From a virus: a stretch of 64,000 nucleotides of DNA. The notes beneath the pieces were generated by a model. That model ran no database searches and was not told the origin of the DNA. It was given only the letters and a program-made list of their open reading frames with translations. Position 1 is the stretch's first letter. The number at the start of each line of letters is the position of its first letter. The stretch is taken from IMG/VR virus record IMGVR_UViG_3300031851_000004, positions 35,271 to 99,270 of that record. One strand, given 5' to 3'. This document shows, piece after piece, positions 37,396 through 64,000 of the stretch. A program made the translations under genes and the position numbers.

Positions 37396-37689
37396 ATGAA
37401 GAATAAAAAACAAACATATAACAAAGATGGATCTACTAGAAAATCTGGTAGTGGTAGAAAGAGTGGAGCGACTTCCTTTGTTAGGGTCACTTTCGATGAG
37501 TTAAGCGGTTTCATAGGGTCAAAGACTCCTATGTTAGTTAGTAGGGTTTGGTTAGAAAATTTAGGTTTAAATAACTTGGGAGAATCTCAAGACCCCATAT
37601 CAAAACAAAAACCTAAATTAGACTTGACTAAAGAAGATGAGTCTGATAAGATTCTATTTTCACTTAACAAATTCAACGATGAGGAATAA
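37396..37689 (+). CDS. hypothetical protein with AT-hook-like GRKSG motif
   Basis: Leaderless promoter TTGACC-17-GATAGT upstream. Confidence 0.55.
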   Translation: MKNKKQTYNKDGSTRKSGSGRKSGATSFVRVTFDELSGFIGSKTPMLVSRVWLENLGLNNLGESQDPISKQKPKLDLTKEDESDKILFSLNKFNDEE

Positions 37690-37690
37690 T

Positions 37691-38620
37691 ATGACAGATC
37701 CATTTAAAAATCTAGTAGGACAAAAAAATGTAAAGAAAAAGCTTAATTTTTATTTAAAAGCTTTTCGTAAAACAAGAATGAATCCATTTCTTGGGTTCTT
37801 TGGAGCAAAAGGGTTAGGCAAGACTGAGTTTGCGAATGCTTATGCTAGAAATTTAACTAATATAGATGGAAGCAAAAGAACCATCATGGAAATTAATTGT
37901 TCTACCATTAAGAATAACGATAGTTTTTTCGATCAAATATTTATTCCTTATATTTTAAATAATGAAGTAACTGTTTTGTTCGATGAAGCTCATGCGTTGC
38001 CAAATGACTTAACAATGGCTTTACTATCCATATTAGACACTAGACACTCTCATCTTAGAGATTTTACTTGGAAGGATACAGTCTTCCCATTTAATTTTAA
38101 ACATCAAAGTTTTATTTTTGCGACTACAGAAAGTGATAAATTGTTTCCTCCATTAAAAGACAGACTAACTTCTGTTGATTTTGATTCTTATTCTCCTAAA
38201 GAATTAGGCGAGATTTTATCATTGTCTATTGAGTGTGATGTAAATAAAGATGTTTTAACTCAACTTAGTAGTGTGGTGAGGGGTAATGCTAGAAATGCGA
38301 TCATGAAAGCTAAAGATATAAATCTTTATATAGCTTCTGAAAATGTTAAAAAATTCACAATGTATCATTATAATAAATTTTGTGAGATATTGGGTGTTTT
38401 ACCTTTTGGAATTAGTTGCACAGAGAAACAAATACTTGAAGTTTTAAAGGAAAAAGGTGCTTGCACTTTGTCTATGCTCGCAGCAAAAACAGGATTGAGC
38501 GCTACATCGTTAAGATGCGATCACGAAAAATATCTTTTAAGACAAAACTTAATGGAGATAGATGTAAAAAGAAAGATAACTCCATTAGGTAGGGAAGTTA
38601 TGAAAAAAGTTCCTGCTTAA
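37691..38620 (+). CDS. ruvB: Holliday junction branch-migration ATPase, RuvB-like
   Basis: LVGQ, GAKGLGKT, FDEAH, ATT, PLKDR, RG.AR, E.YL and R.IT motifs. Confidence 0.85.
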   Translation: MTDPFKNLVGQKNVKKKLNFYLKAFRKTRMNPFLGFFGAKGLGKTEFANAYARNLTNIDGSKRTIMEINCSTIKNNDSFFDQIFIPYILNNEVTVLFDEAHALPNDLTMALLSILDTRHSHLRDFTWKDTVFPFNFKHQSFIFATTESDKLFPPLKDRLTSVDFDSYSPKELGEILSLSIECDVNKDVLTQLSSVVRGNARNAIMKAKDINLYIASENVKKFTMYHYNKFCEILGVLPFGISCTEKQILEVLKEKGACTLSMLAAKTGLSATSLRCDHEKYLLRQNLMEIDVKRKITPLGREVMKKVPA

Positions 38621-38862
38621 TTTTTGTTGTTTAATTTTTCAAATATTTTAATTACATCTTCTCTTCTGTCTTCTAGAAGTCTTTGTGTTTGAATCCACCT
38701 CTCGCAGTCTCTAGCTCCATTTTCAGCTAAAGCGATTTCAATGCGTCTTAATTTTTCAGCGATTCTTTCTATTCTAGCGTTCTCTCTTTTCAAGAAAAAA
38801 GCTACAATAGAAATTGTTCCGCCTAAAATAATAAAAATAATATTAGATAACTCTACTTCCAT
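38617..38862 (-). CDS. TM plus coiled-coil protein (holin/hemolysin-like)
   Basis: N-terminal TM; GTGTA motif 10 nt upstream of ATG 38862. Confidence 0.55.
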   Translation of the reverse strand: MEVELSNIIFIILGGTISIVAFFLKRENARIERIAEKLRRIEIALAENGARDCERWIQTQRLLEDRREDVIKIFEKLNNKN

Positions 38863-38884
38863 AACTATATTATACACTTTTTTC

Positions 38885-38913
38885 TTGACAACCCTTTGTG
38901 ATTAAAGTATAAT
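38885..38913 (+). promoter_or_regulatory. perfect sigma70 consensus promoter
   Basis: TTGACA-17-TATAAT, ATG 9 nt downstream. Confidence 0.85.
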
Positions 38914-38922
38914 TCTACAATT

Positions 38923-39972
38923 ATGACAAATACAATATTAGGCTTAACCTGTATCAGTGAAGAACTTAAAGAAAAAGATAAGGCAAAATATTCTTTTAAA
39001 ACTATGACCCGCAAACGTTTTAATGATTTGTGTAATACAATAGGTAGGAATGAAGCTCTTAGTCAATTATCTGAAAGAATTTTGCATAATGTTGTTGTTA
39101 CTCAATATATTATCAATCATTGTGCTAGGACAAATATTAGGCATTATCGTGTTAGTTCTTCTCTTTTCCCTCTCGTTACCGATGAAAGTTTGGAAATATC
39201 TCTTGAAGACCTCTCTGATTACCCTAGGATTAAAGAAGAGTTAAGGCTTGCGGGTTTAATGGCTTTATCATTTAAAATATCAATAAGCACTCATCCCGAT
39301 CAATTTAACGTTCTCGCCTCTACTAATCAAAAATCCGTAGAAAGAACGATAAAGGAATTAAATTTTCAATCTAGTATATTAGATAAGCTAGGTTTACCCC
39401 AAGATCACACTTCCCCTATAAACATTCATCTCAATTGTGGTGTAGGCACTCCAAAAAAACTAGAGATAGATGCCGAATCTCTTAATAATTTTGTTATATC
39501 AGAAGTTGCAGATAGATTTTATAAAAATTTAATGAGATGTGATCAAGGATTAATAAAACGACTAACATTAGAAAATGAAGATAGGGGTCATTGGAATGTA
39601 GATAATATTTTAAAATTTAGTGAATATTTATTTAATAAATATGATTTAAATATACCTATATGTTATGATAATTTGCATGATAATTGCAATCCATCTGAGG
39701 TTCTTAACATAAAATGGCAAGCTGAAAGATGTGCTTATACATGGGTCAAGCAAGGAAATTTAGATTTAATAGAAGGCTCTCATTTTATAGCTCCTGTTTT
39801 TCATTGGTCTGAGGGTAGGAACGATGGGAGTAATAACCCTCGCGCTCATGGAGATTACTTTAGCTTTAAGAATTATCCTCCAATAATCGCTATTGATCCA
39901 AATAATGAAGCTAAGTGGGAATGCGAAGTGAAAGCTAAAGACCTAGCAATTAGAAAATTGATAAATGATTAA
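38923..39972 (+). CDS. uvsE: UV-damage endonuclease
   Basis: RVSS.LFP, HPDQF, LENED, D.LH, HWSE, AH.DY and EVKAKD motifs. Confidence 0.9.
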   Translation: MTNTILGLTCISEELKEKDKAKYSFKTMTRKRFNDLCNTIGRNEALSQLSERILHNVVVTQYIINHCARTNIRHYRVSSSLFPLVTDESLEISLEDLSDYPRIKEELRLAGLMALSFKISISTHPDQFNVLASTNQKSVERTIKELNFQSSILDKLGLPQDHTSPINIHLNCGVGTPKKLEIDAESLNNFVISEVADRFYKNLMRCDQGLIKRLTLENEDRGHWNVDNILKFSEYLFNKYDLNIPICYDNLHDNCNPSEVLNIKWQAERCAYTWVKQGNLDLIEGSHFIAPVFHWSEGRNDGSNNPRAHGDYFSFKNYPPIIAIDPNNEAKWECEVKAKDLAIRKLIND

Positions 39973-62825: not shown

Positions 62826-62916
62826 TTTTTTTAAAAAAATGTTGACATAGAGTAAAAAAAGGTTTATTGTATCGACATATTATTAAAACACGTTTATAAA
62901 AGGAGAAAAAATCGAC

Positions 62917-63243
62917 ATGAAAACATTAAGATCAGACGAGGTAAATCAAAAAGCAAATGGAACTTATTATATAGATTGGACAACTACAAGTTATTTTAAT
63001 TTAATTAATTCGTTTGGATTGCCAACTTATGGCAAATCTGCTGACAACAAGGTTCTATGCGAATGGGTTCTTGAATCTGACAATGGATCAATCGCTACTA
63101 TTTATGATTATAAATCAGATACAAACGATCCCGAATTCGTAACTCGTTGGCACTTAGGAGGTAACGAACATTCTTATGATTTCATTCAAGAAATTAAAGA
63201 AAAAATTAGAAAAAGTATTGACGCTCGTAATCTTGTATGCTAA
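62917..63243 (+). CDS. conserved phage hypothetical protein
   Basis: FG.P, K...EW, ATIYDYK and WHLGG motifs; AAAGGAG RBS. Confidence 0.65.
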   Translation: MKTLRSDEVNQKANGTYYIDWTTTSYFNLINSFGLPTYGKSADNKVLCEWVLESDNGSIATIYDYKSDTNDPEFVTRWHLGGNEHSYDFIQEIKEKIRKSIDARNLVC

Positions 63244-63252
63244 GGTGTCGAT

Positions 63253-63483
63253 ATGAATTACGAAACAGAACCAATTACCTTTCAAGTTCCATCAAATGGT
63301 GGATATAATTATAGATTTAATGAATGTGTAGATCAAATTGCACAATTAATTGATCGTTATTTTGATACTCATGTAGAAGATGTAGAAAGAATTAATAATT
63401 TAGTTGACCAAGAAGTTGTTGATGCAATGAGAAGGCAAGAGAAAGAAAACGAATTAGATAATGTAAATGGGGGAAGTAAATAA
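63253..63483 (+). CDS. hypothetical protein
   Basis: Leaderless promoter 63218-63246. Confidence 0.55.
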   Translation: MNYETEPITFQVPSNGGYNYRFNECVDQIAQLIDRYFDTHVEDVERINNLVDQEVVDAMRRQEKENELDNVNGGSK

Positions 63484-63710
63484 TGAATGTAAGCGAAGTT
63501 AAAGAATTAATACAAGAAGCGAGAGATAAATTTGTTATGGAGGAAGTAAATGAATCTCTTCCATATAATTCTAATGTTGAAGATATTATAATTAAAGCAT
63601 TAGAAATCAAAGGATATGGTTTTGATGGGGGTGGATATGACTTCCAAAACAAAAAACGTGATTTATTCTTTGTCGCAGAGAATGGCGAATGTCTTAAAAT
63701 AACAATTTAA
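63483..63710 (+). CDS. hypothetical protein
   Basis: G.G.D...RDL.F motif; coupled start. Confidence 0.55.
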   Translation: MNVSEVKELIQEARDKFVMEEVNESLPYNSNVEDIIIKALEIKGYGFDGGGYDFQNKKRDLFFVAENGECLKITI

Positions 63711-63714
63711 AATA

Positions 63715-63894
63715 ATGAGACATACAATTCAAATACATAAGGATAATGATTATCCACAACACGATAAGATTTTAGTTCCTGTTCTTTTTTCCTTGACAGA
63801 TGATGGTAAGAGAGTTTATGATGAACAACTTATGCACGATATACTTAAAGATCATATTGAATCAATAGAAAGACATGAAAGAAATTACGAATAA
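63715..63894 (+). CDS. 59-aa hypothetical protein
   Basis: ATG ORF below track cutoff. Confidence 0.5.
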   Translation: MRHTIQIHKDNDYPQHDKILVPVLFSLTDDGKRVYDEQLMHDILKDHIESIERHERNYE

Positions 63895-64000
63895 GTGTTG
63901 ACATATAAATTTAATCATGTTATTGTTAATTATTATCAAAAAGAATTATTAATCTAAAAAAAAAGGAAATAGCGAAATGAGTAAAGCTATTAGATCAACT

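Follow-up and report, generated by a model that had tools for sequence, protein, structure and literature searches.

A 64-kb stretch of viral DNA (hereafter, the window), the last part of one 99,270-bp contig from an uncultured large marine phage (IMG/VR record IMGVR_UViG_3300031851_000004; hereafter G000), carries a long zone that is nearly free of CCAG/CTGG and of several other short words typical of restriction sites. The zone occupies the right part of the window, where small genes lie together with rIIA and rIIB, and its counterparts in related phages are purged of overlapping sets of words. We consider it likely that this reflects restriction-site avoidance confined to an early gene block, which is exposed before its products disarm host restriction, probably through staged entry of the genome.

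The window contains 118 CCAG and 95 CTGG, with 211 sites in positions 1–37,448 and 2 beyond. The only survivors in the zone are a CCAG at 41,159, within a CCAGG, and a CTGG at 49,058. The original prediction, a manual scan of this DNA, had located the same two sites in the last 26.5 kb, and its estimates of about 23 sites in the first 4 kb and about 8 between 31 and 37.5 kb were close to the computed values of 24 and 9, respectively. The deficit was far greater than the encoded proteins and their codons would allow. When synonymous codons were shuffled within the zone's own genes, thereby conditioning on the protein sequences and on the codon usage of the zone itself, 3 CCAG/CTGG were observed against 55.7±7.0 expected (z = −7.6), and the expectation rose to 68.6 when the codon usage of the left side was applied to the zone.

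A change-point fit placed the maximum-likelihood break at window position 30,630, where the 3′ end of a C5 cytosine DNA methyltransferase gene lies, shortly ahead of the first TTGACA-N17-TAGAAT site (30,966), with a second step at ~37,530. The three successive segments hold 5.45, 1.30, and 0.076 CCAG/CTGG per kb. The boundary of 37,449 proposed from the scan therefore agrees with the second step, whereas the best-fitting first break lies well upstream of it.

Codon choice reveals how the sites were removed. Among proline codons that precede a codon starting with G, CCA accounts for 132 of 217 on the left and for none of the 43 on the right, which are 27 CCC and 16 CCT, confirming the shift from CCA-G to CCC-G that had been noticed by eye; the overall usage of CCA is the same on both sides. 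Tryptophan codons follow a C-ending codon (NNC-TGG) in 39 of 260 cases on the left and 1 of 121 on the right, NCT-GGN falls from 117/1210 to 0/359, and NCC-AGN from 28/1142 to 0/428. As the avoidance extends to all three reading frames, selection acts on the DNA word and not on the proteins, and the purge is achieved via synonymous codon and codon-pair choices. A cause at the RNA level was rejected, given that both orientations of the motif are equally depleted though the genes sit on one strand. The surviving site at 41,159 falls inside a gene that looked mobile in the scan and resembles homing endonucleases; the gene is missing at that place in four relatives, which fits a recent insertion in which the purge is probably not yet complete.

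CCAG is not a lone target, as had been supposed, and is instead the strongest of several motifs purged together. The core zone (37,449–64,000) contains no GGCC, CCGG, CCTGA, or ACAGC, one GCWGC, and two ACNGT, with codon-shuffle expectations of 8 for GGCC, 15 for CCTGA, 14 for ACAGC, 4 for GCWGC, and 24 for ACNGT, and these motifs share their boundaries with CCAG. CCAG/CTGG gives the largest signal because it is the most frequent of the purged words. Control words were at normal levels in the zone by the same observed/expected (O/E) comparison (CAGG 41/46, TGCA 119/111, and CATG 82/76), and CAGG/CCTG is still frequent on the right (49 sites), as the scan had reported. With the controls flat and codon usage nearly identical on either side of the boundary, the general compositional shift that had been named as the outcome that would refute the pattern was not observed.

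Six-base palindromes are depleted as a class. In G000 their O/E was 0.70 in the zone compared with 0.95 elsewhere, and 32 of the 64 possible palindromes are absent from the zone compared with ~22 in pieces of the same length from the rest. Across five genomes, including four complete relatives described below, the O/E was 0.65–0.75 in the zone and 0.92–0.95 in the rest, and 26–39 of the 64 are missing from the zone versus 6.5–22 from rest pieces of equal length. The loss of multiple motifs together with the palindrome class is the classical footprint of restriction-modification selection. The palindromes GGCC, CCGG, GCWGC, ACNGT, ACGT, and GCGC are standard for Type II enzymes. Sites published for Type III Mod methyltransferases include ACAGC, CCTGA, the 4-bp CGAG, and CCAGC (PMC10073500; PMC4417156).

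Two simpler accounts of the CCAG signal were rejected. Avoidance of CCWGG (Dcm/EcoRII-type sites) cannot be the only cause, as the original prediction had already argued from the frequent CCTG/CAGG. Contexts other than CCAGG are also depleted: CCAGA occurs 0–1 times against 40–64 expected, and CCAGC, CCAGT, and CCCAG each occur 0 times. A single degenerate motif (CCRG or CCWG) does not account for the pattern either, since CCGG and CCAG differ in their spatial range and in their distribution over the tree, and CAGG is retained. CCGG, which had seemed to be absent from the window, is indeed missing from it and from the entire 99,270-bp contig (0 versus 41–47 expected).

Using the rIIA protein as query, we identified 64 related loci on IMG/VR contigs of up to 214 kb, among them four complete relatives (G001, 180 kb; G002, 206 kb; G003, 214 kb; G005, 211 kb). 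Each of the four has exactly one valley of site density, 21–36 kb in length and covering 10–17% of the genome. The valleys are homologous and syntenic, running from the RuvB-like gene through small open reading frames (ORFs) to rIIA-rIIB and then 1–9 kb further to the end of the core zone; they too are rich in small ORFs, and matches to TTGACW-N16-18-TANNWT are concentrated on their coding strand. Within one genome all purged motifs have common boundaries, and the motif set varies between genomes. G001 and G002 have the same set as the window. In G003, ACGT is added, the loss of CCGG is confined to the zone, CCTGA is retained, and CCAG occurs 5 times against 80 expected, whereas the zone of G005 is purged of CCGG, GGCC, GCWGC, CCTGA, ACAGC, and ACGT and keeps CCAG and ACNGT. 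The zone-limited purge is thus found in all four complete relatives once the motif counts are extended to them.

Outside the zones the words are not avoided. Codon-shuffle comparisons for CCAG gave 326/265, 804/651, 604/547, 847/853, and 1158/1147 in the five genomes (O/E 0.99–1.23), and the other zone-purged motifs were at ~1, with the exception of CCGG in G000, G001, and G002. In those three genomes CCGG is lost throughout (0/37, 0/105, and 0/71, respectively), and in the other two from the zone only. CCGG therefore behaves apart from CCAG, which argues against the one defence recognizing CCAG/CCRG that had been proposed.

A total of 52 distinct zone samples (615 kb) contained 44 CCAG/CTGG compared with 1929 expected. 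On the rIIA tree, GGCC and CCGG each require one change of state, both purges being ancestral, while CCAG requires 7 changes and CCTGA, ACAGC, and GCGC 9 each; the outgroup loci L055 and L064 show no purge. Some lineages have an intermediate state in which CCAGC and CCAGG are gone and CCAGA and CCAGT remain. The 4-mer signal may thus be partly a stack of CCWGG, CCAGC, and something that acts on the other contexts, a layering that also speaks against a single CCAG-directed defence. CCAGG was found in 0 of 238 CCAG sites of the 64 related loci, including the outgroup L055, L056, and L064, even where CCAG density is normal; CCWGG is avoided everywhere, regardless of the zone effect.

The relatives also bear on a historical or compositional origin, by which the right block would be a mosaic module acquired from a lineage of other composition, with no present selection on CCAG. 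Early regions of phages are mosaic, some genes of the G000 zone lack homologues in the relatives, and the guanine-plus-cytosine (GC) content of the zone is slightly lower (0.316 versus 0.325). However, codon usage hardly differs across the boundary and 4-mers of equal composition, taken as controls, keep their frequency, whereas the purge is kept in 52 zone samples whose proteins are 45–55% identical. At such distances synonymous sites are saturated and neutral drift would restore ~40 sites per 13 kb, yet the sites have not been regained, indicating that the purge is maintained by selection; moreover, a site survives precisely in the homing endonuclease gene, the only insertion that is clearly recent. 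Contradicted by codon usage, by the codon shuffle, by the zones of the relatives, and by the O/E of the rest of the genome, this origin was rejected and we regard it as highly improbable.

The block from ~30.6 kb, and fully from 37.4 kb, has the sequence characteristics of a probable early region, namely small ORFs, the rIIA-rIIB pair, and TTGACA boxes on the coding strand. Median ORF length was 89 aa in the zone compared with 185 aa, and the plus strand has 44 TTGACW beyond 30 kb compared with 13 in the first 30 kb. The promoter enrichment is limited to exact TTGACA boxes and high-scoring matches. A strict leaderless pattern, with the start 6–9 nt past a TAnnnT −10 box, was found for 5 of 69 ORFs (Table 1) and is not a systematic trait. 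Four copies of a 56-nt element, 1.1–1.4 kb apart, lie just downstream of the core zone in G001 (L065:16021-19795), each with an A-run, GTTTGCAAT, ~14 nt, TATGCGAAA, and then ATG; −10-like words resembling ATGCGAATAT also occur in the window at 48,994 and 51,347. This element may represent another class of promoter, possibly recognised by one of the phage's sigma-like factors.

Under the reading we favour, selection would strip the early block, and no other part of the genome, of the sequences that host restriction-modification systems recognise. The stripped words would comprise Type II palindromes (GGCC, CCGG, GCWGC, ACNGT, and many 6-mers) and asymmetric words of Type III style (CCAG, CCTGA, and ACAGC). 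The remaining genome, in which these words are as frequent as expected, must therefore escape host nucleases initially; hundreds of 4-bp targets over ~150 kb would make a site-free block pointless unless the remainder stayed unexposed until early products act. Most likely, the remainder would escape through staged or slow delivery of the DNA, of the kind known from T5 first-step transfer or T7-type entry. Only the early block would be open to attack at first, and the other 80–90% of the DNA would become accessible once early products had neutralised restriction. The proposal that an early segment must survive host restriction agrees with the data in a generalised, multi-motif form and fails in its specificity for CCAG.

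Several observations weigh against this reading. A loose sigma70 scan gave 100 matches, compared with 102 in shuffled sequences. Known anti-restriction families were not recognised among the ~40 zone ORFs, most of which belong to no family. Searches of the literature yielded no plain 4-bp CCAG specificity for any enzyme, whether restriction or methylation. The CCAG purge spans lineages in which rIIA is merely 45–55% identical, an unusual stability for a host restriction specificity. Finally, the profile of site density is not a gradient that runs one way from a terminus but a valley flanked by a shoulder on each side, and the maps of the relatives are effectively circular, as G000 reads across the contig junction of G001.

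The last two points would fit a course in which the whole genome enters together and only the early block needs to remain intact during the first minutes. Shielding of the rest, by co-injected DNA-coating proteins or a compartment, would be one possibility; in another, the rest would be cut and subsequently rescued by early nuclease inhibitors together with repair or recombination. In either case the purge would remain an avoidance of restriction, with no need for staged entry. The absence of a demonstrable terminus and the repair-type genes at the zone edge (RuvB-like and UvdE) fit such a course, and a precedent exists in the P1 proteins DarA and DarB, which protect DNA in cis (as cited in PMC12455610). 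Against it, early proteins accumulate too slowly to keep pace with restriction enzymes acting on unprotected DNA, and 4-bp sites at an O/E of ~1 over ~150 kb amount to hundreds of targets per genome, the repair of which appears implausible; a Dar-like or Gam-like gene was not recognised. We therefore consider simultaneous entry unlikely, though less so than the other alternatives to site avoidance with staged entry.

Terminal repeats were not found on the contigs searched, and maps of strand and skew are uninformative about a terminus because nearly all genes are on one strand. Contig ends cluster near rIIA/rIIB, with rIIA at most 10 kb from an end in ~30 of the 64; among the 13 near-complete contigs (177 kb or longer), the distance is no more than 5.1 kb in 5 (chance about 1e-3). 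The clustering could reflect a physical end or the difficulty of assembling a hypervariable region. A sharp edge in G001 was rejected as a boundary signal because it coincides with a GC-rich island with a scaffold gap. This island (L066:1300-4200; G001 21.3–24.2 kb) directly follows the low-site region, contains many GGATC, a 10-N scaffold gap, and a 13-nt tandem repeat, CGGATCGGTGGAT x4.6 at L066:2432-2491, and may be inserted foreign DNA, a region resembling an origin, or a joint of the assembly.

The methyltransferase gene at the first change point bears on the possibility of a selective agent encoded by the phage itself, either a modification of particular motifs that early DNA could not tolerate or a nuclease of the phage that the early block must escape. 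The gene (PF00145) is present in G000, G001, and G002 and absent from G003, G004, and G005, while N6/N4 (PF01555) and D12 (PF02086) methyltransferases were detected in none of the five genomes. Among solved structures its best relative is M.HaeIII, a weak match (2e-11). The position of the gene exactly at the change point favours a phage-encoded agent, as do its co-occurrence with genome-wide CCGG loss in the same three genomes and the great stability of the CCAG, GGCC, CCGG, and GCWGC purge over a deep phage family, with a single tree change each for GGCC and CCGG. However, G003 and G005 have full valleys with none of the C5, N6/N4, or D12 methyltransferases, and G003 purges CCAG (5 versus 80 expected), so the methyltransferase was rejected as the cause of the CCAG purge. 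In addition, six to nine or more unrelated motifs are lost together with the palindrome class, and the sets vary among close relatives, as expected of a changing panel of restriction enzymes and not of one modification; a base modification applied uniformly would not stay within a single region. A phage-encoded agent is thus quite improbable, and the earlier suggestion that the phage modifies CCAG with a bulky group finds no support, as no methyltransferase of the three families surveyed tracks the purge.

The genome-wide absence of CCGG coincides exactly with the three genomes that encode the C5 methyltransferase. In the non-zone DNA of these genomes, CCAG/CTGG exceeds the codon-shuffle expectation by 10–23%, and this excess could be the result of CCGG being replaced by CCAG/CTGG, through selection or 5-methylcytosine decay. 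The genome-wide avoidance suggests a CCGG-specific enzyme that early functions fail to neutralise.

G000 is a fragment of a phage roughly 180 kb in size (CheckV completeness of the contig, ~73%), with the window as its right-hand part. Nearly all genes of the window are on the plus strand. The left part encodes DnaB, a DnaE-type polymerase, a ClpC-like ATPase (37% identity to the closest bacterial ClpC), glycosyltransferases, the C5 DNA methyltransferase, and a sigma/HTH operon, and the right part a RuvB-like ATPase, UvdE, the homing endonuclease, a macro-domain protein, rIIA, rIIB, a SprT-like protein, and ~45 small ORFs that belong to no family. Searches of a phage collection with rIIA, TerL, and PolIII-alpha as queries did not reveal a cultured relative. 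The SprT-like protein is a candidate for an early counter-defence function. The zone ORF at 49755-50048 has a weak match to the MazE/AbrB-type antitoxin fold (PF04014, 4.9e-05, slightly under the curated cut-off), and its product is possibly a counter-defence protein or a regulator. In G002, ~20 kb of hexanucleotide tandem repeats (G002:C1:145000-165000; L081-L082) with GTCTGA, GTTTCT, and GTCTCG units lie on the strand opposite to the remaining genome and have 170–205 ACTCAGA words per 5 kb; presumably they represent a giant low-complexity repeat gene.

Table 1 Features of the site-free zone and its surroundings (window positions).
Feature	Position	Strand	Details
C5 cytosine DNA methyltransferase gene	29731..30792	+	Pfam PF00145, 1.3e-45; final gene ahead of the first density drop
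Upstream shoulder, partial purge	30631..37448	n/a	covers sigma-like/HTH operon; Pfam HTH_8, GerE, Sigma70_r4
TTGACA-N17-TAGAAT promoter-like site	30966..30994	+	first such site beyond the methyltransferase gene; early transcription may start here
Core site-free zone	37449..64000	n/a	reaches contig end; median ORF 89 aa
RuvB-like AAA+ gene	37637..38620	+	Pfam; conserved at the upstream core-zone edge in 5/5 genomes (synteny)
Leaderless-mRNA candidates	38885-38923, 43479-43515, 55450-55485, 61815-61850, 62353-62388		TAnnnT −10 box
Homing-endonuclease-like gene	39972..41750	+	phrog_7168; no homologue in the zones of four relatives
Residual CTGG	49058..49061	n/a	within conserved small ORF 49029-49313
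rIIA homologue (GHKL ATPase)	57651..59981	+	anchor gene for finding the 64 related loci
rIIB homologue	60094..61266	+	phrog_609, 9.9e-62
SprT-like metalloprotease-domain gene	61850..62356	+	Pfam PF10263, 1.3e-15; inside zone

These zones are among the cleanest demonstrations, from sequence alone, of restriction pressure on a sub-genomic phage segment, conserved and yet re-tuned over dozens of relatives, and they predict staged or protected DNA delivery in this phage family. In the window, some 28 kb for which ~60 CCAG sites would be expected are almost completely cleared of them, and at least six to nine motifs have disappeared together. The predicted host restriction specificities (GGCC, CCGG, GCWGC, ACNGT, ACGT, CCWGG, CCAGC/CCAG, CCTGA, and ACAGC) may aid host identification, and local valleys of palindromes and k-mers suggest a simple screen for leading regions and anti-defence gene pools in metagenomic phages. 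A bolder proposition, which we put forward tentatively and hold to be somewhat doubtful, is that DNA delivery is staged throughout a family of uncultured ~200-kb marine phages, the first-step segment measuring 20–35 kb, and that the nearly universal loss of CCAG/CTGG there records a widespread, uncharacterised host nuclease of plain, asymmetric 4-bp CCAG specificity, perhaps Type III-like. If true, the first-step segment would be several times larger than that of T5, and site-free valleys would reveal the polarity of entry and the restriction repertoires of hosts from metagenomic phage genomes.

Site avoidance in a leading region is already documented for T5, T7-like phages (PMC12455610), and plasmid leading regions, so the pattern most likely adds a striking case to an anti-restriction strategy that is already known, and is not the new, undescribed defence system that had been envisaged. 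In T5 and Murciavirus, restriction acts on the region that is injected first (PMC12455610; bioRxiv 10.1101/866236), and the present case would extend this coliphage principle to an uncultured family of large marine phages. T5, which had been cited as the precedent, yielded a similar palindrome statistic when analysed as a control: the O/E of 6-bp palindromes was 0.67 in first-step-transfer DNA (1–9140) versus 0.82 in 10–50 kb, compared with 0.65–0.75 versus 0.92–0.95 here, and that of 4-bp palindromes 0.83 versus 0.97. T5 has no EcoRI site within its first 30 kb. In both systems a block with small ORFs, pre-early in T5 and probably early here, is site-free, and the remainder of the genome keeps its sites; host-type promoters lie in the T5 block and candidates for them in the present one. 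The T5 block, however, is 8–10 kb (8% of the genome) and lies in a terminal repeat beside a mapped injection-stop signal, with a two-step entry that has been shown experimentally, whereas the block described here is 21–36 kb (10–17% of 180–214 kb), has no sequence homology with T5 pre-early genes, and has no identified terminus, repeat, or stop signal, its early entry being deduced. The pre-early genes in the T5 record are transcribed towards the entering end, and gene direction therefore does not fix the polarity of entry.

In T7-like Autographiviridae (Murciavirus/Mme2I, PMC12455610; the T7 Ocr paradigm), motifs in the early-injected region alone decide the sensitivity to restriction, those elsewhere being tolerated, as proposed here, and the leading region is likewise hypervariable. 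Nearly the entire genome is co-oriented on one strand, and a transcription-coupled entry such as that of T7-like phages would be possible. The Murciavirus case involves one Type I bipartite motif in podoviruses of ~40 kb and has experimental proof, whereas many 4–6-bp words of Type II and Type III style are involved here in phages of ~200 kb, in which no Ocr-like gene was found. Plasmid leading regions share the sub-genomic selection on a first-entering segment that encodes anti-defence genes, but plasmids, unlike phages, enter as single-stranded DNA. The genome-wide site avoidance known from phages has its counterpart in CCGG in G000, G001, and G002 and in CCWGG in every lineage, while the avoidance of the other motifs is regional.

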